This document shows, piece after piece, positions 6,001-23,137 of a stretch of DNA of 64,000 bases. A model generated the notes under the pieces. The model was not told where the DNA came from. It saw only the letters and a program-made list of their open reading frames with translations, and ran no database searches. This stretch comes from an uncultured Trueperaceae bacterium (lineage in GTDB: Bacteria > Deinococcota > Deinococci > Deinococcales > Trueperaceae), in contig CALMXZ010000011.1 in the NCBI GenBank assembly GCA_937873495.1, positions 344,808 through 408,807 on the forward strand, read 5' to 3'. A program made the position numbers and the translations under genes. Within the stretch, counting starts at the first letter, position 1; every line of letters starts with the position of its first letter.

Positions 6001-7968
6001 GTGGTCGGCGAGCGCACGCTCGAAGTCGTCGACCCGGTAAAGGCCCTTGCCGACGAAGATCGCGGCGCCGAACAGGTCCTGGTAGACGTCGGAGACGGCG
6101 TGGGTGTAGAGGTCGAGCCCGTTCTCGCCGACGAACAGGCGGCTGAAGCGCGAGGCGTTGGCGCTCTCGGGCAGCACGTCGGTGCGCGGCTGGAGCAAGC
6201 TGTAGCCGGCGACGACGCGGCCGTCCTCCCCGAACTCGGCGCGGTTGAGAGGATGCGCGAGCGTGCCTATCAGGCTCACCGCCGCGCCGGGTGGCAGGCG
6301 CGTGTCGGCGTCGAGGGTCAGGACGTACTCGGTTCCTATGAGCTCGGCGACGTCGCCGACGATGAACTCGAACGTCGTGTCGTCCGCACCGCGCAGGAGC
6401 CGGTTGAGTTCCATGAGCTTGCCGCGCTTGCGCTCCCACCCCATCCAAGTGCCCTGGCTCGCGTTCCAGCGCCGGCCGCGGTGCAGGAGGTAGAAACGCC
6501 CCCGCCGGTCGGCGACCCCGTCGGCCACCCCGCCGGCTGGTCCGTACGCGCCGTTCAGGCGCTCCACCCGCCGCCGCGCGTGCGCCAGGAGGTCGGGCTC
6601 GCCAGGCAGCGTGGCCGCCGCGGCGTCGGGGAAGTCGGTCAGCAGCGCGAACGCCAGGCGCGGGTCGGGGTTGCCGAGGTAGTGGCGTTCCAGCTGCCCG
6701 AGCAGGTCGTCGACCTCCTCCCGGCTCGCCACGAGCACGGGCATCACGACGAGCGCGGCGTAGCGGGCGCGCTCGTCGGCCCCTGGGCCAACGCGCGGCG
6801 CGGCAGCCCCCGGGTCCGCGCGCGGCGAGCCGCCGCCGAGGTCGAGGCGCGGCAGGAGCGTCGGGGCGAGGAGACGGTTGAGGGCGTAGTTGACGACCGC
6901 GACCGCCACGGTGAACGCGGGCACGACGAGCAGCGCCGCCGCGAGAGCGACCAGCCATACCGCCGCGCCCGACGCGGCGGCGTACGCGCCGCCCCAGAGG
7001 AGCAGCGTCGCCGCCACGAGCCCGACGCTCCCCAAGTAGACGAAGGTCGGGTGGGCCTTGACCCACGCGCGCGAGCGCTCGCCCATCCGGCGCCGGTAGC
7101 CGAAGGCGTCCTCGAGGAGCGGCGCGCCCCGGTCGATCAAGTAGTAGCCCACGTGCCCGGCCCGCCGGCGCGCCTGGGGCTGCTCCCCGGCGGCGCGCGC
7201 GAGGCGGACGGCCTCGCGGGCCACGGCGACCTCGTCCGTGCCGGTGCGGCGCGCCACCCGCTCGACCACCTTCCGGTAGCGGTCGCGCGTCGCGAACGTC
7301 ATGCGCGCATAGTCGCCGCTCGCGTCCTTACGCAGCTCCCGCTCGCTGTGGCTCGCCGCCTCGAAGAAGACGCGCCAATCGGTGCTCTTGACGGTCCTCA
7401 AGCCGACGATGCAGTCCGCCACGCGCTGCTGGTGGCTCTCGCGCTCGGCGTGGTCGTCCGCCTGGCTCGGGGGCGCCGTGAGCAGCTCGGCGCTCTCCGT
7501 CAACCAGTCGAGGAGAACGAGGCGCAGGAGGCCCGGGAGGGCCCACAGCTCGCCCATGGACAACGGGGCGACGGCCTGGTAGTCCTCCAGCAGGGCACCC
7601 GCCCTGGCGATGTCGAGGCGCCCGCCGCATTCGTCGAGGAGCAGGACGGCGAGGGCCTCCGCGCGCGCGGCCCCGCCGCCTACCGCGCCGTCGGCGAGGC
7701 ATGGCAGACGCCGGTAGAAGTCGGTCGGGAGGTCCTGGGTCGCCTGCCTCACGGACTCCCTGATGAGGTAGTAGTTGTCGAGGAACCACTCGGCGGCGTA
7801 CGAGCCCGTAGTCGTCGTCTCGGCCTCGGCGCCGAAGGCGCGGTGCGCTCGGGCCAGCTTGCGCGTCATCTCGGCGAGGCGCGTGGCCGGGGTCGGCTGA
7901 GCGCGCTTGCTGGGCTCGAGCCCGGCGCCCACGTGCTCTTCCGCCCAGGCGCGCGCCGGACCAGCCAT
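1..7968 (-). CDS. Giant glycosyltransferase, cyclic beta-1,2-glucan synthase-like (GT-2/GT84 domain plus GH94-like C-terminal region). N-terminal roughly 2655 codons; the gene continues beyond the window start. Start codon uncertain (ATG 7966-7968, or GTG 7987-7989).
   Basis: Minus frame with triplets congruent to 1 mod 3 has first-position-of-plus-triplet GC of about 58/60 in a sampled 180 nt, i.e. minus GC3 about 97%, while all plus frames show mixed or low GC3. Hand translation gives MAGPARAWAEEHVGAGL...AEWFLDNYYLIRES..., the DxD motif region VLTLDADTRLPPGA, and the QxxRW motif AQRWIRGDWQ. It continues through ...LPESANASRFSRLFVGENGLDLYTHAVSDVYQDLFGAAIFVGKGLYRVDDFERALADH... with no stop. 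The ORF track lists no minus ORF in this frame between 1 and 8000, consistent with an open frame lacking a stop inside the window. The plus ORFs 262..702, 733..1050, 1297..1866, 2734..4230 and 5239..8109 are its codon-aligned antisense shadows. Confidence 0.6.
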   Translation of the reverse strand, partial: MAGPARAWAEEHVGAGLEPSKRAQPTPATRLAEMTRKLARAHRAFGAEAETTTTGSYAAEWFLDNYYLIRESVRQATQDLPTDFYRRLPCLADGAVGGGAARAEALAVLLLDECGGRLDIARAGALLEDYQAVAPLSMGELWALPGLLRLVLLDWLTESAELLTAPPSQADDHAERESHQQRVADCIVGLRTVKSTDWRVFFEAASHSERELRKDASGDYARMTFATRDRYRKVVERVARRTGTDEVAVAREAVRLARAAGEQPQARRRAGHVGYYLIDRGAPLLEDAFGYRRRMGERSRAWVKAHPTFVYLGSVGLVAATLLLWGGAYAAASGAAVWLVALAAALLVVPAFTVAVAVVNYALNRLLAPTLLPRLDLGGGSPRADPGAAAPRVGPGADERARYAALVVMPVLVASREEVDDLLGQLERHYLGNPDPRLAFALLTDFPDAAAATLPGEPDLLAHARRRVERLNGAYGPAGGVADGVADRRGRFYLLHRGRRWNASQGTWMGWERKRGKLMELNRLLRGADDTTFEFIVGDVAELIGTEYVLTLDADTRLPPGAAVSLIGTLAHPLNRAEFGEDGRVVAGYSLLQPRTDVLPESANASRFSRLFVGENGLDLYTHAVSDVYQDLFGAAIFVGKGLYRVDDFERALADHVPENSLLSHDLLEGIYGGVALVSDVVLFEEYPPTYLAQVRRAQRWIRGDWQLLPWLLATLVGARSRGERLGPAGAWKVADNLRRSLVAPALLALFVAGWLVLPGSPGVWTLIALSTLAAPLLAGAVIAYLDGLIENYTVPGRRRLTPWQPLSQAFGRFAITLSFVPYEAGMVVRSVAVTLYRLFVTRRNLLEWRTAALTNREPPPTLAGNVSRMGWALALSALTALAVALVRPEALMAAAVPLVVWLLAPLSAHLLSLATDGAPRELTDAERRELHGLARRTWLYFERFVGPEDNWLPPDNVQLGAGTVTAHRTSPTNVGLMLLSTLAAHDLGYLGLVDLSVRLRQTFDVLGRMERYRGHLLNWYDTRSLEPLRPRYVSSVDSGNFAAALVALRQGCSQLLERPVDVAAFFSGLTDALAVLEDALFAAMPERPTAVAAVAALRERVESAALERELWPSTIAFLEGDAWPTVEEVIVAAMHGGDLTGPDLDAVRLWSGRVRHGIKVTLGEIASLAPWVRAVWEARAWTDGLQPGSPAHTAWQAVVGALAHEPPLREVGAWAEKALEALRSLRAALGDELAVAPAGRAWCDDLATRLASARSAAAGLTRVFEKLAELSEAEIDATDFAFLFDPDRQLLHIGYNVDTEQLDSNHYDLLASEARLASLVAVAKNDVPLSHWVHLNRPLSDLGGRAALLSWSGTMFEYLMPELLTRRYGATLLDQSCAAAVDVQMAFAKRNGVPWGVSESGYARVDAAGNYQYHAFGVPELALNRSYSSDLVIAPYASMLALRRRPGAVLENAVRLAEAGALGPHGFFEALDYTPERRPLGEDRALVRSHMAHHQGMVLLAVANALTDDAMVERFHADPRVATVEYLLQERIPLDVPVVDDLRQDESPSAPIDVATLDEPWPVPVDTATPATHLLSNGAYTVLLSEAGGGWSALGDVAITRWRPDGTRDADGTWIFVRDDRDGSVWSATPGPLPTRVQDDRVVFYPYKVEYQREFDGILTRLEVVVAKGAAELRRLTVVNRGATSRVLHVTSYAEVVLGSAAADARHPAFSKLFVESSFLAGRSAILFRRRPRSADEAALFAAHAVVGRDDSAPCEYETDRAAFLGRGNDVTTAVGPRGPLGGAGAAERAGAAGPDATLDPVMALAVRLELAPHSQEEITFVTAGGASARELTDLLDELRKPGMVAREFDLARLRSRVELQEHDLTPAAVETYQRLYSAVVYPLPELRAPAATLAANTLGQPSLWGQGISGDLPIVLVRLDSAERLPLVVETLRAHAYWRRRGVKVDVVVLNTQDTAYDQTLHGRLRAQLVRLGSDAWLAVPGGIYLLRRDQLAPADLVLLESAARVVLDGERGSLAEQLRPLDLPPRPGLPLLTPVMERQQGAAEGGEAVNLRYDNGWGGFTEDGREYVIRARRGALPPAPWSNVIANEALGCLTTEAGLSVTWAVNSGENRLTPWSNDPVTDPSAEAVYLRDEETTEVWSATPHPAGGEEPFEVRHGAGRTTYAHVSHGLEQALEVSVATHDPVKLVRLSVRNLSDRPRRVTVTYYAEWVLGVDRQSTSHHLLPDYVPERYVLLARNPYSSDFGERVAFLAGSRPPHGVTTDRREFLGRRGSPAMPDGLRRVGLGGTIAPGTDPCAAMQLHLDLAVGGSEEVLFALGQAEDRATALDLAERYRDLEAYAAELAAAEAVWDARLDKVRVSTPDPALDLMTNRWLLYQTLASRYFGRTAFYQPGGAYGFRDQLQDVVALLHAAPELARAQLLRAAAHQFEEGDVLHWWHPPTGRGVRTRISDDLLWLVYATERYVTTTGESGVLGEVVPFLTGRPLAPDAEDRYDAYAPGQESGTLLEHCCRALEKGATLGRHGLPLMGTGDWNDGMNRVGAAGKGESVWLAWFLVDVIRRFTRLLGHAGGSDAEAERWAARADAYARACEESAWDGRWYLRAFYDDGTPLGTAAASEWRIDSIAQSWAVLAGAAPAERASAAMRSVEELCVRWG

Positions 7969-8012
7969 GTCTCGGTCGTCGTCGGGCACCGTTGCAGGCG
8001 CGTCCGCGCCGG

Positions 8013-8936
8013 TCACCCGCCCCACGTCGCTTCCGTCGCGTCGCCCGGGCGGGCGGCGCGCTCCTGCCATGGCAAGTCGTGGATCACCAGGAGGGGCGTC
8101 GGCACGTAGTCGATGAGGTTGGTCGTCACCTCCCCGAACGGCCATGTGTGGTCGCCGCCGAAGCCGTGGGCGCTCATGACGACGAGGTCGGGTGCGCACT
8201 CGCGCACGAGGTCGTGAAGCGCGGGCGCCGCTCGGCGCCCGGCCACCAGGCGCGCTTCGGCGCCGCGGCCGAGGCCGGCGGCAAGGTCGGTCAGGTACTG
8301 CTTGGCGGCGGCCGTGTTGAGCTCGACGAGCCGCGCGGAGAGCTGCCGCTCCTCGGCGGCGGCCGGCACAGGGCGGGGCACGGCCGGCTCCTCCACCACG
8401 TGCGTCAGGATCACGTGCGCCCCGAACCGCTCGGCCAGGAACCGCACGACGGGCAGCACGCACTCGGCGCGCTGGGAGCCGTCGAGCGCCACCATGACCG
8501 TCTCGTAAGGGCCGGCTCGCTCGGTCGTTTCACCCCTGACGAGCAGCGTTGAGATGAACGACCGCCAGAGGACGCGCCCGCCGACCGCCCCGAAGTGGGC
8601 ACCACCCGCGGCGCCCGTCGGCATGACCAGGAGGTCGGCGCCCTGGTGGGCGCGGCGCACGATGTTCTCCGCGACCTGGCCCTCGGGCAGGTAGTGGGTG
8701 ACCGAGAGCCCGACGCCCGCGAGTAGCGCGCTCACGTGCTCGAGGTAGGCCTGGGCGGCCAGGCGCCGCGCATGCCATTCGACGGCGTCCACTGCTTGGG
8801 ACTCCCCGGCGGGAGCTTCGAGGACGTGCAGCAACTCCACGGTGGCGCCGGAGCCGAGCGCCAGGTCGCGGGCGTGCGCGATGGCTGGTCGGTCGAGGTC
8901 GGTGCCGGTCAACGGCAGCAAGAGATGGTTGAACAT
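8013..8936 (-). CDS. Universal stress protein, tandem UspA domains
   Basis: 307 aa with two UspA-like halves (…VELLHVLE…LLVMPT… and …HVILTHVVE…LVVMSAHGF…). AG-rich RBS GGAAGGAGGAG upstream. Confidence 0.7.
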   Translation of the reverse strand: MFNHLLLPLTGTDLDRPAIAHARDLALGSGATVELLHVLEAPAGESQAVDAVEWHARRLAAQAYLEHVSALLAGVGLSVTHYLPEGQVAENIVRRAHQGADLLVMPTGAAGGAHFGAVGGRVLWRSFISTLLVRGETTERAGPYETVMVALDGSQRAECVLPVVRFLAERFGAHVILTHVVEEPAVPRPVPAAAEERQLSARLVELNTAAAKQYLTDLAAGLGRGAEARLVAGRRAAPALHDLVRECAPDLVVMSAHGFGGDHTWPFGEVTTNLIDYVPTPLLVIHDLPWQERAARPGDATEATWGG

Positions 8937-11394: not shown

Positions 11395-12621
11395 TCAGAC
11401 GAGCCCGAGCTCCTTGCCGGCCTGGACGAAGGCGGCGACCGCGTGCTCCAACTGCGCGCGCGTGTGGGCGGCCGACATCTGGGTGCGGATGCGCGCCTGG
11501 CCGCGCGGCACGACCGGGAACGAGAAGCCGACGACGTACACGCCGAGCTCCAACATGCGCTCGGCCAGGCGGGTGGCGAGCGCGGCGTCACCGATCATCA
11601 CGGGGATGATGGGGTGCCCTTCGCCCGCCAGGGTGAACCCGGCGTCCGTCATGGCGCCCCGGAAGTAGGCGGCGTTGTCGCGCAGCCGCTCGCGCAGCTC
11701 GGCGCCGCCCTCGAGCAGGTCCAGGACCTTGAGCGAGGCAGCCACCACGCTCGGCGCGAGCGAGTTGGAGAAGAGGTACGGCCTGCTGCGCTGCCTAAGC
11801 CACTCGACGATCTGCCGCCGGCCGCTCGTGTAGCCGCCGGAAGCGCCCCCAAGGGCCTTTCCGAGGGTGCCTGTGAGGATGTCGACGCGGCCCTCGACGC
11901 CGCGCGCCTCGAACGAGCCCCGACCGTTCTCGCCCGTGAAGCCCGTCGCGTGGCTGTCGTCGACCATGACGAGGGCGTCGAAGCGGTCCGCCAGGTCGCA
12001 GACGCCCGCCAGGTCGGCGATGACGCCGTCCATCGAGAACACGCCGTCGGTGGCGATGAGCTTGACGCGCGCGCCGGCGGCGTCCGCGGCACGGAGCTGC
12101 CTCTCCAGGTCCGCCATGTCGTTGTTGTTGTACCTGAAGCGCTTCGCTTTCGACAGGCGCACGCCGTCGATGATGCTGGCGTGGTTGAGGGCGTCGGAGA
12201 CGATGGCGTCCTCCTCGCCGAGGAGCGTCTCGAAGAGGCCGCCGTTCGCGTCGAAGCAGCTCGAGTAGAGGATCGTGTCGTCGGTGCCGAGGAAGGCGCT
12301 GAGGCGCCCCTCGAGCTCCTTGTGGATGTCCTGCGTGCCGCAGATGAAGCGCACGGAGGCGACCCCGAAGCCCCGCTCGTCGAGGCCGCGTTGGGCCGCC
12401 GCGATGACCTCCGGGTGGTTGGCCAGCCCGAGGTAGTTGTTGGCGCAGAGGTTGAGGACCTCGCGCTCCACGCCGCCGTCGCTCACCGTCACGCGCGCCT
12501 GTTGCTGCGATGAGATCACGCGTTCGGACTTGTAGAGGCCCTCGGCGCGCAGACCGGCGAGCCGGCTCTCCAGGTCCGTGAGGAACGCGGCGCGAACGGC
12601 GCCGGGACGATCACTCGCCAT
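11395..12621 (-). CDS. kbl: 2-amino-3-ketobutyrate CoA ligase (glycine C-acetyltransferase), PLP-dependent
   Basis: 408 aa. Class-II aminotransferase fold with lysine motif DSHATGF…TLGKALGG. Classic kbl-tdh order. Confidence 0.9.
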
Positions 12622-15028
12622 ACGGCACCCACACGTTCTTGACCCGGGTGGCGCGGCGGAGGAACTCGGGGCCCGCCGCCTGCGCGTCGTCGTACCAGTC
12701 GCGCGCCCTGCCCGAGTTCACCCACGTCGCCTTCAGGTTGCCCGCGCTCTCGCGCTCCACCATGGCGCTCCCTTCGGCCGAGCCCACGTACCAGATGGCC
12801 TCGACGGCGTCGTGCTGAGCGAGGACCTTGGCGAGCTCGTCGCGCACGCCCGTCACGATGTTGATGGCCCCGCCCGGCACGTCGGACGTATCGAACACCT
12901 GATAGAGGTCGGTGACCGGCAGCGGCCAGCGCGCGCTCGGCACGGCGACCACGCGGTTGCCCATGGCGAGCGCGGGCGCGACGAGCGAGACGAAGGCGAG
13001 GAGCGGCGCCTCGTCGGGGCACACGACGGCGAGGACGTCGTACGGCTCGTTCATGGCAAGCGTCACGTTGCGCATGGGGGTCGGATGCACGCGCCCGTCG
13101 TACTTGTCGGCGTAGGCGGCGGCGGAGAACAAGCGGTCGACGCTCTTCTCGACCTCGCGGCCCGCCGCCTTGCGCGTGCCGCCCACCAGGCTGCGCAGGC
13201 GCTCCTCGAACTCCGGCGCGCGCGCGGACAGGTTCTCGGCCACGTAGTAGAGGACCTGGGCGCGCGCATGCGCGGTCGCCTGGGTCCAGGCGCCGGACTT
13301 CACGGCTGCCTCGACGGCGTCGCGCACGTCCTTGCGGTTGCCTAAGGGGGCGTCGCCGACCCGCGCTCCCGCGGCGCTGAGCACCGGGTAGGAGTAGTTG
13401 CCGTCGGGGCGCTTCTGCTTGCCGCCGATGTAGAGCTTCGGCGTGCGGTCGATCGGGGCGAACGCCACGGCCCCCCCATGACCGCCATCGAGGCCGGCTC
13501 CGAGGTCGGAGGCGGCCGCCGGCGGCGCCAGGTCGCCGCTCGAGTAGCGCGCCAGGCGCGCCTCGAAGCGGGGCTTGAGGTACTCGAACATCCCTTCCCT
13601 GCCTCCCTCGCGCCCGAAGCCGCTCTCGCGGTAGCCGCCGAAGCCGGCCGCCGCGTCGAACTGGTTGGTGCAGTTCACCCACACGACGCCGGCCTTGAGC
13701 TTGGGCGCGACGTCTAGGGCCAGGTTGATGTTCTCCGTCCATACGCTCGCGGCGAGGCCGTAGCGCGTGTCGTTCGCCAGCTCGACCGCCTCGGCGGGGG
13801 TGCGGAACGTGAGGCTCACGATCACCGGGCCGAAGATCTCTTCCTGCGCGATGGCGGCGGCCGGGGAGACCTCGGTGAACAGGGTCGGCGGGTAGTACCA
13901 GCCGTCCTTCGGCGCGCTCCAGCTCGGCTGGTAGCACCGCGCGCCCTCGGCCCTGCCCTGCTCGACGAGGCGCTCGATCTTGGAGAGCTGGACGGGCGCG
14001 ATGATCGCGCCGATGTCTATCCCCTTGTCGAGCGACGGACCCTCGCGCAACGTCTCCATGCGCGCGACGAGCTTGGCCTCCATGCGCCTCGCGACGCTCT
14101 CCTGCACGAGCAGGCGGCTGCCGGCGCAGCAGACCTGGCCCTGGTTGAACCAGATCGCGTCGACGACGCCCTCGACGGCGCTGTCCAGGTCGGCGTCGTC
14201 GAAGACGATGAACGGCGACTTGCCGCCCAGCTCGAGGGAGAGCTTCACGCCGCGCCCCGCCGTGGCGCGGCGGATGATGCGCCCCACCTCGGTGGAGCCC
14301 GTGAACGCCACCTTGTCGATGCCGTCGGCATCAACGAGCGCGGCGCCCGTGAGCCCGTCGCCCGTAACGACGTTGAAGACGCCGGCCGGGAGGCCGACCT
14401 CGTTGGCGAGCTCGGCGAAGAGCAGGGCCGTGAGGGGCGTGAACTCGGCCGGCTTCAGCACTACCGTGTTGCCGGCGGCCAAGGCCGGGGCTACCTTCCA
14501 AGCGAGCATGAGCAGCGGGAAGTTCCACGGGATGATCTGGGCGCAGACGCCCACGCCCTCGTAGTCGGGGAACTCCTTGTCGAGCAGTTGTGCCCAGCCC
14601 GCGTGGTGGTAGAAGTGGCGCGCCACCAATGGCACGTCGAGGTCGCGGGTCTCGCGGATGGGCTTGCCGTTGTCGAGCGCCTCGAGGACCGCCAGCAACC
14701 GGGCGTGCTTCTGCACGTGCCGGGCGAGGGCGTACAGGTAGCGGGCCCGGCCGGGGCCGCCCAGATCGCGCCAAGCCGGCAGCGCGGCCCGGGCCGCCTT
14801 GACGGCCTTCGCCACGTCGCGCTCGTCGCCCTGCGCCACCTGGGCCAGCTCCTTGCCGTCACCGGGGTGGTAGGTGGCGAAGGTCTCGCCGGCGGCCGGC
14901 TTTACGAAGCGCCCACCGATGAAGTGTCCGAAACGCCTGCCGTGGCGTTCGAGCCACGCCACCGCGACGTCGGCCGCCTCGGGGGCGGGGCCGTACTCCA
15001 TCGTCTCGAAGATCTCCTTCACGCTCAT
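12611..15028 (-). CDS. Aldehyde dehydrogenase family protein with a second, degenerate ALDH-like C-terminal domain (805 aa)
   Basis: N-terminal domain has the ALDH catalytic motifs ELGGKSP and [15 protein letters not shown]. The C-terminal roughly 315 aa is ALDH-like but lacks the Cys and Glu motifs. Overlaps the kbl start by 11 nt. Confidence 0.8.
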
Positions 15029-15102
15029 CTCTCACAGACTCCTTAAGCCGGTGGACGAGCCGGCCGAGCGACCGGCCTCGCATGGCGACGGGGCCCCGGC
15101 CA

Positions 15103-16110
15103 TCAGCCGAGCGGGTGGCGGTAGGTTGCCGAGTAGCGGCCCGTGACGTGGTGCTCGAGCTGCCGTTCGATGTCGGCCAGCAGCGAGCTGGCGCCGATCC
15201 TGAAGAGGTCGGGTTCCAACCAGCGGCGCCCCAGCTCCTCCTTCATGAGGACGAGCCATGCGAGCGCGTCCTTGGCCGTGCGCAGCCCGCCCGCCGGCTT
15301 GAAGCCGACGGCGCTGCCAGTGCGCTCGAAGTACTCGCGTATAGCGCGCGCCATGACGAGGCTGACGGGCAGCGTGGCGTTGACCGGCTCCTTGCCCGTC
15401 GACGTCTTGATGAAGTCGGAGCCGGCCATCATGGCGACCAGGCTCGCCTTGTAGACGTTGCGCAGGGTGCCGAGCTCGCCGGTCGCGAGGATGGCCTTCA
15501 TGTGCGCGGGGCCGCACGCCTGCCTGAACAGCCTGAGTTCCTCGTACAGCGCTTCCCAGTCGTGGGTGAGGGCGTGGCGCCGCGAGATGACGATGTCGAT
15601 CTCGTCGGCGCCGGCGGCGACCGATTGACGGATCTCCTCGATGCGGGTCTCGAGCGGCGAGAGGCCCGCCGGGAAACCGGTCGAGACGGCAGCGACCGGG
15701 ACCCCGGAACCGCGCAAGGCCGCGACGGCGGCAGGCACCATGTCGTGATAGACGCATACCGCGCCGGTGGTGATGCGCAGGTCGCCGACGCCGAGGGCGT
15801 CGAGCAGGTCCTGGCGCACGGGGTGCATGGCCTTGGCGCACAGGCGCCGCACGCGGCCCGGGGTGTCGTCGCCCGCCAGGGTCGTCAGGTCGATGAGCGT
15901 GACGGCCTTGAGGAGCCAGGCGGCCTGCCAGTCCTTCTTGACGCTGCGGCGCGTCGTGAGGGTGGCGGCGCGGCGCTCGACGGCGCTGAGGTTGACGCGC
16001 ACCCCCTCCACCCAGTCGAGCTCGAGGGCCATGCCGTCGTTGCGCGGCAGCGGCGCGGCGTGGGCGGCGGCCTGCTCCAGCCTGAGGTCTACTTCACGCG
16101 ACATGGTCAT
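15103..16110 (-). CDS. deoC: Deoxyribose-phosphate aldolase, long form (335 aa)
   Basis: Internal Met start MTMSREV… preceded by a GGAGAG RBS. DERA TIM-barrel motifs (IDLTTL…, FIKTSTGK Schiff-base lysine region). The upstream 228 codons of the listed ORF are an antisense shadow. Confidence 0.8.
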   Translation of the reverse strand: MTMSREVDLRLEQAAAHAAPLPRNDGMALELDWVEGVRVNLSAVERRAATLTTRRSVKKDWQAAWLLKAVTLIDLTTLAGDDTPGRVRRLCAKAMHPVRQDLLDALGVGDLRITTGAVCVYHDMVPAAVAALRGSGVPVAAVSTGFPAGLSPLETRIEEIRQSVAAGADEIDIVISRRHALTHDWEALYEELRLFRQACGPAHMKAILATGELGTLRNVYKASLVAMMAGSDFIKTSTGKEPVNATLPVSLVMARAIREYFERTGSAVGFKPAGGLRTAKDALAWLVLMKEELGRRWLEPDLFRIGASSLLADIERQLEHHVTGRYSATYRHPLG

Positions 16111-16200
16111 GCCTTCTCTCCTATCGCTGGAGCATACACTGGCGTCTGGGTCGGGCTTTGCGGCGCTGCCACCAGGCCGCGACCCCAATGGAGGCGAACC

Positions 16201-17199
16201 GTGCAACTGACCAACTTCCCGCGCCGCCGCTACACGGCGGGCGCCACCCCGCTCGAGCCGCTCCCACGGCTGAGCGCCCATCTTGGCGGGCCGAACCTCT
16301 GGATCAAACGCGACGACCTGCTCGGGCTCGCCGCCGGCGGGAACAAGACGCGCAAGCTCGAGTTCCTGGTCGCCGACGCGATCGAGAAGGGCGCCGACAC
16401 GCTCGTGACGACGGGCGCCGTGCAGTCGAACCACTGCCGCCTCACGCTCGCGGCGGCCGTGCGCGAAGGCCTCGCCTGCCGCCTCGTGCTCGAAGAGCGC
16501 GTCGCGAACAGCTACTCGGTCGGCGCGAGCGGCAACAACTTCCTCTTCGGTCTCCTCGGCGTCGAGGCCGTGACCGTCGTGCCGGCCGGCACCGACCTCA
16601 TGGCCGAGATGAACAAGGTCGCCGCCGAGCTGGCCGCCCAGGGGCGCTCGGCCTACGTCATCCCTGGCGGCGGCTCCAACACCCTCGGCGCGCTCGGCTA
16701 CGTGAGCTGCGCACAGGAGCTGATGCAGCAGGCCTTCGAGATGGGGCTCGACATCGACCACCTCGTGACGGCGAGCGGCAGCGGCGGCACCCACGCCGGG
16801 GTCGTCGCGGGCCTGACGGGCACCAGCGCCGGCGTGCCGGTCACGGGCATCAGCGTGCGGGCACCCAAGGCGCCCCAGGAGGAGAAGATCCTCGGGTTGG
16901 CGCGGGCCACCGCGGAGCTGGCCGGCTCGCAGCGACTGCCGACGGCGGAGGACGTCGTCGTGCTAGACGACTACGTCGGCGCCGGTTACTCCCTGCCTAC
17001 GGACGGCATGATCGAGGCGGTCAAGCTCTTCGCGCGGCTGGACGGTGTGCTCCTCGACCCCGTGTACACGGGCAAGGCGGCGGCCGGTCTGATCGACATG
17101 GTGCGGCGCGGGACGTTCGGGCGTCACGACGACGTCGTCTTCCTCCACACGGGAGGCAGCCCGGCGCTCTACGCCTACCAGGACGTCCTCGCCGGCTGA
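16201..17199 (+). CDS. PLP-dependent ACC deaminase / D-cysteine desulfhydrase family lyase (DcyD/CuyA-like)
   Basis: GTG start after a GGAGG RBS. 333 aa with KRDDL…GGNKTRKLEF PLP-lysine motif and glycine loops, typical of the ACCD/DcyD/CuyA family. Confidence 0.75.
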   Translation: MQLTNFPRRRYTAGATPLEPLPRLSAHLGGPNLWIKRDDLLGLAAGGNKTRKLEFLVADAIEKGADTLVTTGAVQSNHCRLTLAAAVREGLACRLVLEERVANSYSVGASGNNFLFGLLGVEAVTVVPAGTDLMAEMNKVAAELAAQGRSAYVIPGGGSNTLGALGYVSCAQELMQQAFEMGLDIDHLVTASGSGGTHAGVVAGLTGTSAGVPVTGISVRAPKAPQEEKILGLARATAELAGSQRLPTAEDVVVLDDYVGAGYSLPTDGMIEAVKLFARLDGVLLDPVYTGKAAAGLIDMVRRGTFGRHDDVVFLHTGGSPALYAYQDVLAG

Positions 17200-17912
17200 T
17201 GGATAGGCGGCGGGTCATCGGCGTGCTCGGCGGGCTCGGGCCGGCCGCCACGGTGGACTTCTACGCCAAGCTCGTGGCGGCCACCCCGGCGCGGCGCGAC
17301 CAGGACCACATCCACGTGATCATCGACGCCGACCCGAGCGCGCCGAACCGCAACGACGCCGTGGCGGGCGTCGGTCCGAGCCCCGAACCGCAGCTCGTCG
17401 GCATGGCGACCCGCTTGGCGGCGGCCGGGGCCGAGGCGCTGTTCATGGTGTGCAACACGGCGCACGCCTACGCGCCGGCCATCCGCGCGGCGGTCGCCAC
17501 GCCGCTCGTGAGCATCATCGAGGAGACCGTGGCCGCGACGTTGGCGGCCGCGCCCGGGGTCGACCGCGTCGGCGTCCTCGCCGCGGCGGGCGCCCAGGAC
17601 GCCAGGCTCTACCCGACCGAGTTCGCTCGGCACGGCGTGAGCGTGGTCGAGCCGCGCGGCGAGCTCCGCGAACGGTTCATGGCGCTCCTCTACCGCATCA
17701 AGGCGGGCGACACGGGGCAGGAGGTCAGGGCCGGCATGCGCGCCATCGCGCTCGAGCTCGTCGAGCTCGGTGCGCAGGCCGTGGTCGCCGGCTGCACGGA
17801 GGTCCCGCTCGTCCTGGCTCAGGCCGACATCGGAGCGATCCCGCTCGTCTCATCGACGGACGCGCTGGTGAGCGCGGCCGTTGCCATCGGGACGGGCGTG
17901 CGGCCGCTGTGA
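17198..17912 (+). CDS. Aspartate/glutamate/hydantoin racemase family protein
   Basis: 238 aa. VIGVLGGLGPAAT… and …FMVCNTAH… two-Cys racemase motifs. Start overlaps the dcyD-like stop (ATGA). Confidence 0.75.
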
Positions 17913-18034
17913 CCACGGGGGCGTAGGCCCGGACCACCGTGCTAAGCTTCCCCCGCGAAGGCGTCAACGCGGGACCGCGACGGGCATGCCCGCGGACCGG
18001 GTTGGGCCTCGAACACCATCTTCGGAGGCGATAC

Positions 18035-18916
18035 GTGAAGCGACTCATCTCCACCTCGATCGCGCTCGTCCTGGCCGTCACGCTCTTCTCGGGCATGGCC
18101 GCCGCGCAGGGCGACATCCCGAGCAAGCTCGTGCTCGGCATGGTCCCGAGCCGAGAGGCCAACGCCATCGTCGACAGCCTCGACCCGATCGCCGCCATGC
18201 TGTCCGAGCGCCTCGTCATCCCCGTCGAGACCTTCGTGTCGACGAACTTCGTCGGCCTCGTCGAAGCCGTCGGCACCGGCCGCGTCGACATCGGCCTCTT
18301 CGGCCCCGCCGCGCTCGTCCAGGCCATCGACAACTACGGCGCCGAGGTCATCCTTGCCTCCGTGCGCCAAGGCGCCACCTCCTACCGCGCGCAGTTCAAC
18401 GTGCGGTGTGACAGCGGCATCACGACCTTCGAGCAGCTCCGCGGCAAGACGATCGCCTTCGTCGACCCCGGCTCCGCCTCCGGCTACCAGTTCCCGTTCG
18501 TGACCCTCAAGAACACGTACGGCATCGACCCGAACACCGAGATGACCTCCATCTTCGCCGGCTCGCACGACGCCGCCGCCCTGGCCGTCTACAACGGCGA
18601 CGTCGACGTGTCCGTCACGTTCGGCGGCTCGCCCGGCTCTGACGGCCGCGAGACCATCGAGAAGGACTACCCGGACGTCAAGGACGTCGTGTGCATCCTC
18701 GGCTACTCCGACTACATCCCGAACGACGGCGCCGTCGTCCGGAAGGGCCTCGACCCGGTGCTCGTCGGCCAGATCGCCCAGGCCCTCATCGACATCGCGA
18801 ACACGCCCGAGGGCAAGGAACTCACCAGGACCCTCTTCAACGTGACGGAGTTCGCGCCCGTCGACGCGTCCGCGTACGACATCGTGCGCGAGGTCTCGAA
18901 GGCCTTCCAGCGCTGA
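18035..18916 (+). CDS. ABC transporter substrate-binding protein, PhnD/SsuA-like (phosphonate/phosphite/sulfonate-type) with signal peptide
   Basis: GTG start after GGAGG. Signal peptide LISTSIALVLAVTLFSGMAAAQG. PhnD-like periplasmic binding fold. Confidence 0.75.
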   Translation: MKRLISTSIALVLAVTLFSGMAAAQGDIPSKLVLGMVPSREANAIVDSLDPIAAMLSERLVIPVETFVSTNFVGLVEAVGTGRVDIGLFGPAALVQAIDNYGAEVILASVRQGATSYRAQFNVRCDSGITTFEQLRGKTIAFVDPGSASGYQFPFVTLKNTYGIDPNTEMTSIFAGSHDAAALAVYNGDVDVSVTFGGSPGSDGRETIEKDYPDVKDVVCILGYSDYIPNDGAVVRKGLDPVLVGQIAQALIDIANTPEGKELTRTLFNVTEFAPVDASAYDIVREVSKAFQR

Positions 18917-18999
18917 GTTCGACCTAGAGCACGCTGACCAAGCGCGCCCAAGGACGGGCGGCCGGGGATAGACCCGGCCGCCCGTTTCCGTGTAGCGTT

Positions 19000-19803
19000 G
19001 TGGCCGTCGTGACAGATACCGTGGGACCTGCCGTGGGACATATCGCGTTCGAGAACGTCGAGGTCGTCTACAAGACCGGACTGAAGGCCTTGAAGGGCGT
19101 CACGCTCGCCATCCCGAGAGGCCAGTTCGTCGTCGTGGTCGGCCTTTCCGGTGCGGGCAAGTCGACCTTGATCCGCACGGTCAACAACCTGGTCGTGCCG
19201 TCGTCCGGGCGCGTCGTCGTCGACGGCGTCGACGTGACCAACGCGCGCGGGCAGGCGCTCAGGGCCGCGAGGTCCGACATCGGCATGATCTTCCAGACCT
19301 TCAACCTCGTGAAGCGCTCGAGCGTCATCCGCAACGTCCTGTCCGGCCGCCTCGGCGACCTGCCGGCCTGGCGCGGCGTGCTGAGCGCCTTCCCCAAGGC
19401 CGACCAGGCTTACGCGCACGACTGCCTCGCCCGCGTCGGCATCCCGGAGAAGGCCTACGTGCGCGCCGACGCCCTCTCCGGCGGCCAACAGCAGCGGGTC
19501 GGCATCGCCAGGGCACTGGCCCAGCGCCCGAGCGTGATGCTGGCCGACGAGCCGGTCGCGAGCCTCGACCCGCCCACGTCCCACGCTGTCATGTCGGACC
19601 TCAAGCGCATCGCGCGGGAGGACGGCATCACTACCATCGTGAACCTCCACTTCATCGACATGGCCCGCGACTACGCCGATCGCATCATCGGTATGCGCGA
19701 CGGCGTCGTCGTCTTCGACGGCACGTCCGCGGAGGCGACGGACAGCGCCTTCGAGGAGATCTACGGCCGCCCGATCGACGACAAGGACCTGCGCGGTGCC
19801 TGA
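19000..19803 (+). CDS. phnC: ABC transporter ATP-binding protein, PhnC-like
   Basis: Walker A GLSGAGKST, signature LSGGQQQRV, Walker B MLADEP. Confidence 0.85.
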   Translation: MAVVTDTVGPAVGHIAFENVEVVYKTGLKALKGVTLAIPRGQFVVVVGLSGAGKSTLIRTVNNLVVPSSGRVVVDGVDVTNARGQALRAARSDIGMIFQTFNLVKRSSVIRNVLSGRLGDLPAWRGVLSAFPKADQAYAHDCLARVGIPEKAYVRADALSGGQQQRVGIARALAQRPSVMLADEPVASLDPPTSHAVMSDLKRIAREDGITTIVNLHFIDMARDYADRIIGMRDGVVVFDGTSAEATDSAFEEIYGRPIDDKDLRGA

Positions 19804-20581
19804 CCGGGCGGTCGCGCTCCCGCGCGCCACGGGTCGCGTCAAGTCGTTCGTGACGCTCGCGCTGGTGGCCGCCCTGTTCATCGTGGCCTTCGGCCAGACG
19901 AAGTTCAACCTCGGAGCGCTGTTCACGGGCGCCTCGGACTTCTTCCGTTTCTTCGGCCGCCTGACGCCCGACCTGACGGCGTTGCCGCAAATCTGGCCGC
20001 CGCTCCTCCAGACCATCCAGATCGCGTACGTCGCCACGATCATCGGGGCCGTCATCGCGATACCGCTCGTGTTCCTCTCGTCGGCCAACACGGCCGTCGA
20101 CCCCGTGTCCATGTGGATAGCGCGCACGCTCCTTACCGTGCTGCGCAGCATCCCCGACCTGCTGTGGGCCGCCCTGTTCGTGGCCGTGCTCGGCCTGGGC
20201 GCCCTCCCCGGCGTCGTCGCGCTCACGCTCTTCTCGGTGGGCGTGCTCGCCAAGCTCGGCTCGGAGACGGTCGAGTCCATCGACCCCGGCCCGCTGGAGG
20301 CGCTCAAGGCCGTCGGCGCCGGCCGCAACCGCACCATCGTCTTCGCCGTCGTGCCGCAGATCGCGGCGACCATGGTCTCCTACATGCTCTACGTGTTCGA
20401 GATCAACGTGCGCGCCAGCGTCGTGATCGGCTTCGTCGGCGCGGGCGGCATCGGGGTCCTCCTACAGACCTACATGAACTTCTTCGACTACCCGGGCCTC
20501 GGCGCCCTCATCCTGGTCATCTTCATCGTCGTCCTCGCCATCGACGGGCTCAGCGTCTGGGCCAGGTCGCGGCTCATCTAG
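19796..20581 (+). CDS. phnE: ABC transporter permease, PhnE-like
   Basis: 261 aa, 6 TM permease typical of PhnE. Overlaps the phnC stop. Confidence 0.8.
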   Translation: MPDRAVALPRATGRVKSFVTLALVAALFIVAFGQTKFNLGALFTGASDFFRFFGRLTPDLTALPQIWPPLLQTIQIAYVATIIGAVIAIPLVFLSSANTAVDPVSMWIARTLLTVLRSIPDLLWAALFVAVLGLGALPGVVALTLFSVGVLAKLGSETVESIDPGPLEALKAVGAGRNRTIVFAVVPQIAATMVSYMLYVFEINVRASVVIGFVGAGGIGVLLQTYMNFFDYPGLGALILVIFIVVLAIDGLSVWARSRLI

Positions 20582-20589
20582 GGGCGTAA

Positions 20590-21408
20590 GTGAACGCGAC
20601 TCGTCCGCTCCCAACCCATGTGCCGCCCGCTCCGGCGCACGTGCGCCGGAACCGCACCCTGCTCATCGCCGGCGTCGTGGTCCTCGTTGCGCTCTTCGTC
20701 CTCGCCATCGCCACCATGAGCCTGCCGACCTGGTCGCGCGTCGTCAGCGGCCTGCAGCGCAACGCCCTGCCGCTCCTGCGCGGGCTCGTGCGGCCGGAGA
20801 CCAAGGTCTTCGAACTGGCGTGGAACTCGATGGTCGTCACCTTCTTCATGGCCATCCTCGGCACGGCGCTCGGCGCCTTGCTCGCCTTCCCCCTCTCGTT
20901 CATCGCGGCGGGCAACCTCCTCGGCGGCACGCGCTGGGCGCTGCCGGGCAAGGCGCTGCTCGTGGCGGTGAGGACGTTCCCTGAGATCGTCCTGGCCGTC
21001 ATCTTCGTGGCCGCCGCCGGCCCCGGCCCCACGGCAGGCATCATGGCCATGGGCATCCACTCGATCGGCTACCTCGGCAAGGTCTTCTCGGACGTCATCG
21101 AGGGGATCGACCAGGGTCCGATGGAGGCGATCCGCGCCGCCGGGGGCAACCAGCTCCACACGTTCCTCTTCGCCGTGGTGCCGCAGGTGCTGCCGGAGTT
21201 CGCCTCCAACGTGCTCTACCGCTTCGAGATCAACCTGCGCTCGGCCGCCGTCCTCGGCATGGTCGGCGCCGGCGGCATCGGCCTGCCGCTCATCCAACGC
21301 CTGCAGTTCCGCCGTTGGGCGGAGGTGTCGATGTTCCTCATCGTCATCGTCGTGTTCATCATCGTGGTCGACGCGCTCAGCTCGCGGGTCCGCCGCCGGC
21401 TCGTCTAG
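20590..21408 (+). CDS. phnE: ABC transporter permease, second PhnE-like
   Basis: 272 aa paralogous permease immediately downstream. Confidence 0.8.
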   Translation: MNATRPLPTHVPPAPAHVRRNRTLLIAGVVVLVALFVLAIATMSLPTWSRVVSGLQRNALPLLRGLVRPETKVFELAWNSMVVTFFMAILGTALGALLAFPLSFIAAGNLLGGTRWALPGKALLVAVRTFPEIVLAVIFVAAAGPGPTAGIMAMGIHSIGYLGKVFSDVIEGIDQGPMEAIRAAGGNQLHTFLFAVVPQVLPEFASNVLYRFEINLRSAAVLGMVGAGGIGLPLIQRLQFRRWAEVSMFLIVIVVFIIVVDALSSRVRRRLV

Positions 21409-21440: not shown

Positions 21441-21887
21441 ATGATCGCTTGGATGAGCGACTACCCACCAGCCACGCGCGCCCGCCTGCTCGACGCGGCG
21501 GCGGAGGTCCTCCTGGCCACCGTCGCGGCCGACCGCACGGGCGTGATCGCCTACTACCGCGAGGTGATGGCCGCCGGCCGCTACCTCTACGACGCCCAGC
21601 GCAAGTACGCCCACAACGCGCTCATCGCGGCCCTCTTCGAGCACACCTACTCGGACGAGGAGCGCGAGGGCGACGACGAACCGCTCACCAAGGAGCGCCT
21701 GCTCGCGCGGCTAGCCGAGGTCGGTGAGGCCCTCCACGACGACGAGGAAGGCGCCGAGTTCAAGACGTTCCTCTTCGAGCTGGCCGAGCGCGTCGCCAAG
21801 GCTTCCGGCGGCTTCTGGGGCGGCATCAGCCCGGACGAGGCCGCGTTCCTGGCGGAGCTGAGGCGCCTCCTCAAGCTGCAGGGCTGA
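21441..21887 (+). CDS. Hypothetical soluble acidic protein (149 aa)
   Basis: ATG start MIAWMSDYPP…. High GC3, no recognised domain. Confidence 0.4.
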   Translation: MIAWMSDYPPATRARLLDAAAEVLLATVAADRTGVIAYYREVMAAGRYLYDAQRKYAHNALIAALFEHTYSDEEREGDDEPLTKERLLARLAEVGEALHDDEEGAEFKTFLFELAERVAKASGGFWGGISPDEAAFLAELRRLLKLQG

Positions 21888-21892
21888 GGAGC

Positions 21893-23137
21893 GTGACGGG
21901 TCGCTGGGTCTGGGGCCTGGCGCTCGGCTGCTTCGTGCTGGCGGCCGGTACCGGCGCGTACTACCGCTTCAAGCTCGTCTATGCGTTGCCCGGCGTGCTC
22001 GAGTACGTCAGGCACGCCCATTCGCACCTGATGTTCTTCTCGTGGGTGACGCCCGTCCTGGTGCTGCTCGTGGGGGCGTACCTGGCGCGCGAGGGCTTGA
22101 GACCGCGGCTCTTCGGCTTCACGGCCGCCCTCGCCGCCTTCAGCGGGCTCGCGACCTACCTGCCGTTCCTGAAGAGCGGCTACCACCTGATGGTCGTCGG
22201 CTCCAAGGCCCTGCCGATCTCGATGATGATCTCGGGCGCCAACGGCGTGGCGTGGTACCTGTTCGTCGCCGCGTACCTGGTCGCGACGTGGCGCGTCGAG
22301 CGCCGGCCCGTGCTCCGGCTGCTCGACGGCGCCGTGGCGATGATCGTGGTCAGCACGGTCGCGATAGCCGGGCTCGCCTACCTCGGCATGAGCGGCCAGG
22401 TGGCGCGGCCGCTCATGCTCGCGCTCGTCGACTGGTTCCTCACGTGCTTCGCCGACGGTTGGTTCGGCCTCGCCGTGCTGGCGTTGGCTGCCAGGCACGC
22501 GCTGCGGGCCGGGCTGAGCCGCGCGCCCGTCGGACTGGCGGCCTGGTCGCTCGTGGCCGCCATCGGCGTGCGCAGCGCCGCCCGCTTCGCGACCGACGGG
22601 CTCGGCTGGCCGTGGCCGGCGGGGGTCGACGCCGTCGCGAGCGCGGTCGCCGCCCTCGCCTGGCTCGTGCTCGTGCGCGCCGTGTGGCCCGTCGACCCGG
22701 AAGCCGGGTTGAGGGGAAGCACGTTGTGGCTCCGGCAGCTCGCCCTGGCGCTCCTCGGGCTCAAGGGGGTGGTCGAGCTCGCGGGCGCGCTGCCGGTGGT
22801 GCGCGCGGAGCTGATGGCCGCGCCGTTCCACGTCTTCTTCCTCCACGCGTTCCTGCTCGGCGCGGTGAGCTTCTCGCTCCTGTACGGCGTCCGCACGGCC
22901 ATCGCGCCGACGGCCTTCAAGGGGGCGACCGCCTTCATCGTCGCGGTGGGGGTGATGGTCGGCGCGCTGGTGACCCTGACGCCGGTCTGGCCGAGCGCCA
23001 TGGCCGGCCCCTGGGTGCTCTACGCGACGGCGGTCACGAGCCTCGGGCCGCTGCTCGTGGCATTGCAGGCGCTGCTCAGGCTCGACCTCGGGTCCGGCTC
23101 CAGAGCCACACGACCGCCAGCAGCAGCGCGAAGGTGA
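21893..23137 (+). CDS. Polytopic membrane protein, possibly NnrS-family-like
   Basis: 414 aa with about 12 TM segments. His-rich segment YVRHAHSHLMFFSW. GTG start after GAGGAG. The 3' end overlaps the convergent MFS gene by about 60 nt. Confidence 0.45.
   Translation: MTGRWVWGLALGCFVLAAGTGAYYRFKLVYALPGVLEYVRHAHSHLMFFSWVTPVLVLLVGAYLAREGLRPRLFGFTAALAAFSGLATYLPFLKSGYHLMVVGSKALPISMMISGANGVAWYLFVAAYLVATWRVERRPVLRLLDGAVAMIVVSTVAIAGLAYLGMSGQVARPLMLALVDWFLTCFADGWFGLAVLALAARHALRAGLSRAPVGLAAWSLVAAIGVRSAARFATDGLGWPWPAGVDAVASAVAALAWLVLVRAVWPVDPEAGLRGSTLWLRQLALALLGLKGVVELAGALPVVRAELMAAPFHVFFLHAFLLGAVSFSLLYGVRTAIAPTAFKGATAFIVAVGVMVGALVTLTPVWPSAMAGPWVLYATAVTSLGPLLVALQALLRLDLGSGSRATRPPAAARR

Follow-up and report, generated by a model that had tools for sequence, protein, structure and literature searches.

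The degradation of cysteate by a racemase and a lyase was biochemically established in 2024: CuyB converts L-cysteate to D-cysteate, from which CuyA produces pyruvate, NH4+ and sulfite (PMC11193023). The pathway was extended to D-cysteinolate in 2025 (PMC12814064). Homologs of both genes, followed by four genes of an ATP-binding cassette (ABC) importer related to PhnCDE, were identified in a 64 kb stretch of DNA from an uncultured Trueperaceae bacterium (contig CALMXZ010000011.1), the whole of which is referred to here as the window. The locus was taken as positions 16201-21408 plus the downstream genes to 23137.

The closest described enzymes are CuyB and CuyA of Bilophila wadsworthia and Ruegeria (Silicibacter) pomeroyi (PMC11193023), with which the pair in the window shares the enzyme families, the catalytic residues, the adjacency of the two genes and the predicted chemistry. 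The setting differs: an aerobic-type Trueperaceae metagenome-assembled genome (MAG) takes the place of a sulfite reducer or a roseobacter, the gene order is cuyA then cuyB with an overlap of 1 nt, the neighboring transporter belongs to the PhnT family, and no SDF transporter, RidA, CuyR regulator or CuyZ sulfite exporter is found nearby. CuyC and HpsN, which belong to the D-cysteinolate extension (PMC12814064), are likewise absent here.

On the transport side, E. coli PhnCDE (PhnD structure 3P7I) belongs to the same family and is likewise built from a binding protein, an ATPase and PhnE, but the binding proteins are only 25% identical, the Trueperaceae locus has two separate phnE genes, and no phosphonate catabolic genes adjoin it. 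The closest solved relatives are the PtxB proteins of the PtxABC systems of P. stutzeri and Trichodesmium (PMC5700983), with 26-27% identity over the Foldseek alignment; an S-x-S/His head-group motif is common to both, whereas ptxD is not present here. Picocyanobacterial PhnD1 (PMC10284923) likewise belongs to the PhnT family, lacks nearby genes for phosphonate or phosphite catabolism and has an uncertain ligand despite its annotation. It has been proposed to be a constitutive phosphate importer and offers a precedent for a partnerless PhnDCE acting as a phosphorus importer (PMC10284923). The capping tyrosine of the Prochlorococcus PhnD1 protein, Y206, is an Asp in the protein described here. 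TauABC and SsuABC, the usual dedicated sulfonate uptake systems, are also binding-protein-dependent ABC importers, but their binding proteins are of a different family.

Six open reading frames (ORFs) were confirmed on the + strand, encoding a lyase, a racemase, a PhnD-like protein, PhnC and two PhnE proteins. The initial annotation, which had correctly described them as co-directional, had joined them into one candidate cassette for the uptake and desulfonation of an amino-sulfonate or amino-phosphonate. On balance, the locus is read here as a known cuyAB module lying beside an independently transcribed importer, that is, as a lineage-specific juxtaposition and not as a dedicated cysteate-uptake cassette. 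An integrated cassette is considered unlikely; in it, cysteate or a close amino-sulfonate would enter through PhnDCEE and then be racemised by CuyB and desulfonated by CuyA, a PhnT-family transporter having been recruited for a sulfonate.

The lyase gene, cuyA (16201..17199, + strand), has a GTG start with GGAGG 5' of it. Its product scored 527.5 bits against the NCBIfam equivalog model NF052482 (sulfolyase_CuyA), above the cut-off of 450 bits, and matched the Pfam family PALP with an E-value of 3.5e-51. The racemase gene, cuyB (17199..17912, + strand), encodes a two-cysteine cysteate racemase of 237 aa, independent of pyridoxal phosphate (PLP), which scored 256.3 bits against NF052483 (racemase_CuyB; cut-off 190 bits) and matched Asp_Glu_race (6.2e-37). 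The cuyB ATG shares one base with the cuyA stop codon (ctgATGg). Residues N48, K49, S76, N77, Y289 and T317 of the lyase align with N50, K51, S78, N79, Y287 and T315 of StDcyD, a residue set which has been listed for Salmonella DcyD and for two characterized CuyA enzymes and in which the tyrosine explains the selectivity for the D-form (Liu et al., PMC11193023). The comparison of active-site residues with reference enzymes which the initial annotation had proposed found all six of these DcyD/CuyA-type residues kept. CuyB contains only two cysteines, C85 (VCNTAH) and C199 (GCTEVP), both invariant across 28 homologs.

A scan with the CuyB alignment, using one genome per species, yielded 80 cuyB-centered loci, which were spread over several phyla (Trueperaceae, Caulobacteraceae, Geminicoccaceae, Hyphomicrobiales, Halieaceae, Woeseiaceae and others); a cuyA homolog adjoined cuyB in 70 of them. 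Judged from its sequence, the pair is very probably a CuyA/CuyB cysteate desulfonation module. In this first module the two genes would be translationally coupled. C85 and C199 of CuyB would interconvert L- and D-cysteate, and CuyA would form a PLP aldimine on K49, from which Y289 would remove the alpha-proton and sulfite would be eliminated, giving pyruvate and ammonium. The family and the residues were seen here, and the chemistry is carried over by analogy from the characterized Bilophila and Ruegeria enzymes. The cuyAB half of the earlier idea is right, but it was already known.

The second group of genes begins with the phnD-like gene (18035..18916, + strand), the product of which is a periplasmic substrate-binding protein of 293 aa with a Sec signal peptide. 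Its ORF opens at 17939, and the true start was set at 18035 based on database homologs of 293 aa. The protein matched PF12974 (Phosphonate-bd, E-value 3.5e-58) with 197 bits against a cut-off of 27, and TIGR01098 with 205 against 112. The ATPase gene, phnC (19033..19803, + strand, 256 aa), has an ORF which opens at 19000, its gene-caller and public-record start being 19033; the product matched ABC_tran (4.3e-32) and scored 330.4 bits with TIGR02315 (cut-off 266.1). Two permease genes follow on the same strand, phnE1 (19796..20581, 261 aa) and phnE2 (20590..21408, 272 aa), with BPD_transp_1 E-values of 1.2e-16 and 6e-16 and TIGR01097 scores of 272.1 and 265.5 bits, respectively (cut-off 216.7).

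The closest solved structures of the binding protein were PtxB, cyanobacterial PhnD, ArrX, E. coli PhnD and HtxB. An AlphaFold2 model (predicted local distance difference test score 76, open form) was compared with the PDB by Foldseek: the top 42 matches were all PhnT-family binding proteins, and SsuA structures ranked 44th or lower, with template modeling (TM) scores of 0.44-0.50. The score with TIGR01728 (SsuA_fam) was 30.4 bits, the cut-off being 163.5. This score and the Foldseek TM values ruled out membership of the SsuA/TauA family, which also counts against the cassette. The statement of the initial annotation that PhnD/SsuA-type binding proteins bind sulfonates had merged two families, of which the protein here represents the PhnD type. 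According to the profile scores and the structural model, the transporter is a PhnT/PhnD-family ABC importer (transporter classification TC 3.A.1.9). As a second module, phnD-phnC-phnE-phnE would form a binding-protein-dependent importer with a promoter-like element of its own and a hairpin after phnD. A classical phn (C-P lyase) operon, which had already been called unlikely, was ruled out, since no C-P lyase genes were present among the window genes surveyed.

The association of the importer with cuyAB was found to be narrow. Only two of the 80 cuyB-centered loci (L008 and L016, one labelled Truepera and the other unlabelled but syntenic) contained a PhnD-type binding protein, and none did so outside the Trueperaceae synteny block, which argues against the cassette; the protein was missing from 14 of the 15 cuyB loci labelled Trueperaceae, Truepera or Deinococcales. 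The 89 immediate neighbors of cuyAB in 44 loci were distributed over 105 Pfam families, among which no transporter predominated, the transporter-type neighbors counted being Na+/alanine symporters (3), major facilitator superfamily (MFS) proteins (2 + 2) and ABC permeases (2). Among other Deinococcota (L090-L092), cuyB was followed by a D-2-hydroxyacid dehydrogenase gene, by genes for an AsnC regulator and an Opp-type transporter, or by a NUDIX gene. The dehydrogenase, a D-isomer-specific 2-hydroxyacid dehydrogenase, is encoded directly after cuyA-cuyB at 8803-9762 of L090 and 8777-9748 of L092; it is phosphoglycerate-dehydrogenase-like, scored below all cut-offs, and may connect cysteate metabolism with sulfolactate or sulfopyruvate.

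The clade of the binding protein (at least 56% identity) was found only in Trueperaceae. It comprised 61 loci, of which 28 (approximately 21 distinct sequences) had cuyA and/or cuyB directly upstream, 19 had neither cuy gene (six of these being orphan binding-protein genes) and 14 were not evaluable. In a neighbor-joining tree the cuy-linked loci formed one crown group; phnDCEE without cuy was carried by a sister group (L007, L095, L101, L105, L118 and others, located beside tripartite ATP-independent periplasmic transporter genes) and by a basal group. The crown-group loci are syntenic over a block of 12 genes: tdh, kbl, aldehyde dehydrogenase, deoC, cuyA, (cuyB), phnDCEE, (148 aa), 414-aa, MFS and alaS. 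Since the whole block is syntenic, the adjacency of cuy and phn genes may be inherited and need not reflect function. The single uptake-and-desulfonation cassette of the initial annotation was not upheld, the link being confined to this one block.

Linked and sister-group binding proteins have the same 13-position pocket signature. When 21 linked and 11 sister-group proteins were compared, only columns 1, 55 and 59 of the whole protein separated them, none of which lies in the pocket. A shift of specificity in the cuy-linked proteins was ruled out by this lack of group-specific pocket columns, and the identity of the signature in unlinked sister lineages is a further argument against the cassette. 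Inside the crown group, orphan copies of the binding protein (L001-L003, L116, L132 and L133) were observed without ABC partners or cuy genes. They have Tyr, not Phe, at pocket position 72 and may be extra binding proteins for the same transporter.

An extended -10-like motif, GTGCTAAGCT, was identified in the cuyB-phnD spacer (17939..17948, + strand), approximately 96 nt upstream of phnD, and is a putative promoter element. The strict motif GTGCTANNCT has only two occurrences on both strands of the 64-kb window. The relaxed motif GTGCTAnnCT, also extended -10-like, was present in 44 of the 55 evaluable clade loci, unlinked and orphan copies included, at a distance of 60-142 nt on the 5' side of the binding-protein gene. 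That it is kept with or without cuy genes suggests that phnDCEE has its own promoter; a consensus promoter scan found nothing. This conserved promoter-like motif of phnD and the lack of cuy-linked changes in the pocket speak against the cassette, the dedicated cysteate operon that had been envisaged.

The possible ligand was approached by transferring published ligand contacts to the binding protein by alignment, with E. coli PhnD in mature numbering. The head-group residues of E. coli PhnD are kept at four of six positions (Y93=Y117, S127=S147, S129=S149 and H157=H178). The acidic pair E177/D205, which in E. coli PhnD binds the ammonium group of 2-aminoethylphosphonate (PMC12718374), corresponds to D203/D231, both clade-invariant, the alignment of D203 adjoining a five-residue insertion. 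In comparison with PtxB of P. stutzeri, the capping residue Y203 is replaced by D231 and its partner D16 by S39; the capping tyrosine (Ps Y203, Te Y208) makes a P-H...pi contact, excludes larger ligands and confers phosphite specificity (PMC5700983). The Arg/Thr pair at the tail positions of GpxB (R223/T247) is also replaced by D203/D231, and the pocket is not of the GpxB type.

Because the acidic pair and four of the six oxyanion residues are kept and the capping tyrosine is missing, the predicted ligand is a small oxyanion bearing an amino group approximately two carbons away. 2-Aminoethylphosphonate, taurine and cysteate would suit this pocket equally, so far as its residues can tell, and neither phosphonate nor sulfonate is favored. 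The import of an amino-sulfonate or amino-phosphonate, as previously proposed, is therefore retained as regards an amino-substituted oxyanion, but its uptake link to cuyAB was not supported; likewise the proposed pocket comparison matched PhnD in the amine-binding pair, lacked the phosphite cap and did not decide between phosphonate and sulfonate. The IPND/D203 signature was present in 53 of the 68 wider-subfamily representatives listed and, being so common, gives no sign of a new specificity in the clade. That it belongs to a large and widespread subfamily otherwise unlinked to cuy genes is another point against the cassette. A ligand resembling 2-aminoethylphosphonate, or another phosphorus compound, is marginally favored, cysteate or another amino-sulfonate is doubtful, and other ligands make up the remainder.

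Several observations weigh against two independent modules. The genes are adjacent and co-directional, and a consensus scan detected no terminator in the cuyB-phnD spacer, so that read-through co-transcription from cuyAB into phnD is possible. In approximately 21 distinct linked sequences cuyA lies directly upstream of phnD, even where cuyB is missing, and this adjacency is kept at identities down to 47% for CuyB and of 71-90% for the binding protein. Cysteate is charged and needs an importer, and no other obvious one lies beside cuyAB here except a convergent MFS gene; an importer is also adjacent in the characterized cluster of B. wadsworthia (PMC11193023). The binding protein scored below the PhnD equivalog TIGR03431 (180.7 bits, cut-off 261.1). 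Genes for the catabolism of phosphonate or phosphite were seen neither among the surveyed window genes nor at approximately 15 related transporter loci inspected; the linked catabolism expected of an E. coli-type PhnD (C-P lyase, PhnWX, PhnA or PhnYZ) was thus lacking, both in the window genes and in the flanks of those loci. Within the pocket, two head-group residues of E. coli PhnD are changed (Y47 to F72 and T128 to A148), and the loss of these two hydrogen-bond donors would suit a monoanionic sulfonate. The amine-binding acidic pair is kept, and cysteate, taurine and 2-aminoethylphosphonate share an X-C-C-N geometry. Finally, two outgroup loci have sulfur-flavored neighbors, a cysK-like enzyme and a YeiH-family putative sulfate exporter.

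The Trueperaceae PhnDCEE would in this case be an importer of cysteate or another amino-sulfonate, binding the ammonium group by its PhnD-type acidic pair and -SO3- in a reduced oxyanion site, which is possible but improbable. Against it, sulfonate binding is not known for any characterized member of the family (PMC5700983, PMC12718374, PMC10284923), and no residue was identified for the extra alpha-carboxylate of cysteate. A search of the literature for a PhnD-family protein tied to cysteate or taurine found nothing relevant. The juxtaposition of a cuyAB module and a separately transcribed importer is retained as the preferred reading.

Outgroup PhnD-like transporters with 44-47% identity (L141 7776-8912; L151 4994-6157 and 10616-11731; L153) lie next to a cysteine-synthase-like PLP enzyme (below the cut-off) or to the YeiH-family protein and an aminotransferase. 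Over all outgroup loci (40-47% identity) the neighbors were mixed, including aminotransferase and HD proteins, and phosphonate catabolism was not seen. These neighbors are a weak hint that some members of the subfamily serve sulfur or amino-acid metabolism.

That the lyase is instead a D-cysteine desulfhydrase or ACC deaminase and the racemase a general aspartate/glutamate racemase, neither having a role in cysteate metabolism, is very unlikely. The fold and catalytic residues of the lyase are common to DcyD, its best solved relative (7ysk) was deposited as a D-cysteine desulfhydrase, and characterized CuyA enzymes have minor activity with D-cysteine and D-serine (PMC11193023). Against this, while the CuyA and CuyB models were both passed, all of the sister equivalogs remained below their cut-offs: the lyase scored 289-310 bits with DcyD models (429-610), 251 with ACC deaminase (392) and 279 with XcbE (450), and the racemase scored 19-21 bits with glutamate racemase models (146-328) and 42 with PRK10200 (417). 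The tight pairing of the two genes in 70 of the 80 loci and the absence of a cell-wall gene context at the locus also argue against general amino-acid enzymes. The earlier suggestions of a CuyA-type lyase acting on D-cysteate and of a CuyB homolog were therefore supported, and the model scores agree with neither of the alternatives named at that time, an ACC deaminase or cysteine enzyme for the lyase and MurI for the racemase. A phosphite (PtxABC-like) or hypophosphite importer is the least probable explanation of the transporter, for although PtxB was the best solved match of the binding protein (E-value 8.7e-26; Foldseek TM 0.77/0.86 to apo PtxB), the pocket residues D231 and S39 in place of the capping tyrosine and its partner ruled it out, and a ptxD-like dehydrogenase is absent from the cluster.

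The window has a G+C content of approximately 72%, and its proteins match those of Trueperaceae MAGs exactly or almost exactly. Eight predicted proteins, from CuyA through a 414-aa membrane protein, have the same ends in public protein collections. The spacing described earlier as tight is so only within the modules, where cuyA and cuyB overlap by 1 nt, phnC and phnE1 overlap by 8 nt, and phnE1 and phnE2 are separated by 8 nt; between cuyB and phnD and between phnD and phnC there are gaps of 122 nt and 116 nt, respectively. The latter gap contains a GC-rich hairpin followed by TTTCC (18954..18985, + strand, read from the sequence), the arms of which (ACGGGCGGCCGGG / CCCGGCCGCCCGT) form a perfect 13 bp stem with the loop GATAGA and which was missed by the consensus terminator scan. 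A hairpin after the binding-protein gene is a common device for raising the expression of the binding protein, and the one found here may be an attenuator or an mRNA-stabilizing element.

A leader of 55-130 nt upstream of the phnD-like gene was observed across Trueperaceae (17939-18034 in the window; also L001-L007 and L093-L139). When sequences were folded singly, the GGAGG ribosome-binding site was in many cases paired with the CTCC-type 5' end of the leader. A consensus structure for 18 phnD leaders was not obtained with RNAalifold, and the window leader folded no better than shuffled sequences (z = 0.23). An Rfam search of the whole window gave no matches at gathering thresholds and only sub-threshold noise at E <= 1; the hairpin at 18954-18985 likewise had sub-threshold hits only. 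A riboswitch or other known RNA in the spacers was ruled out by these three results.

Directly after phnE2, and co-directional with it, are the genes for an acidic protein of 148 aa (21441-21887, + strand) and the multi-pass membrane protein of 414 aa (21893-23137, + strand), neither of which has a Pfam or NCBIfam match. Their synteny with phnDCEE is limited to the cuy-linked lineage, and their membership of the transport system is uncertain. The 148-aa protein was dropped as a conserved partner of the transporter, as in the unlinked locus L007 phnE2 is followed by an unrelated gene of 151 aa.

Upstream, at 12611-16112 on the - strand and divergent from cuyA, are deoC (335 aa, long form) and a gene for an aldehyde dehydrogenase of 805 aa, the latter having an additional C-terminal Aldedh-like region. 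The deoC/cuyA arrangement is kept in many Trueperaceae and is more widespread than the cuyB-phnD link, and the motif GAGCATACAC recurs in the deoC/cuyA spacer. The divergent genes were rejected as sulfonate enzymes, their products being an ordinary DeoC, a generic aldehyde dehydrogenase, Kbl and Tdh. Further upstream, a gene of more than 2,800 aa on the - strand (1-8529) runs off the start of the window; its product has GH94, glycoamylase and glycosyltransferase domains and resembles a cyclic beta-1,2-glucan synthase.

With this locus the Trueperaceae (Deinococcota) join the organisms predicted to mineralise cysteate, and the annotation of relatives labelled only as "amino acid racemase" and as a generic PLP enzyme can be corrected. 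Where genes lie in a large syntenic block, as in this case, their conserved adjacency gives weak evidence that they are functionally coupled. Should the importer nevertheless prove to carry cysteate, which is considered improbable, it would give the "phosphonate" PhnT family its first sulfonate-specific member, and some PhnDCE systems that have no phosphonate catabolic partners may then serve the uptake of organosulfur compounds and not of phosphorus.

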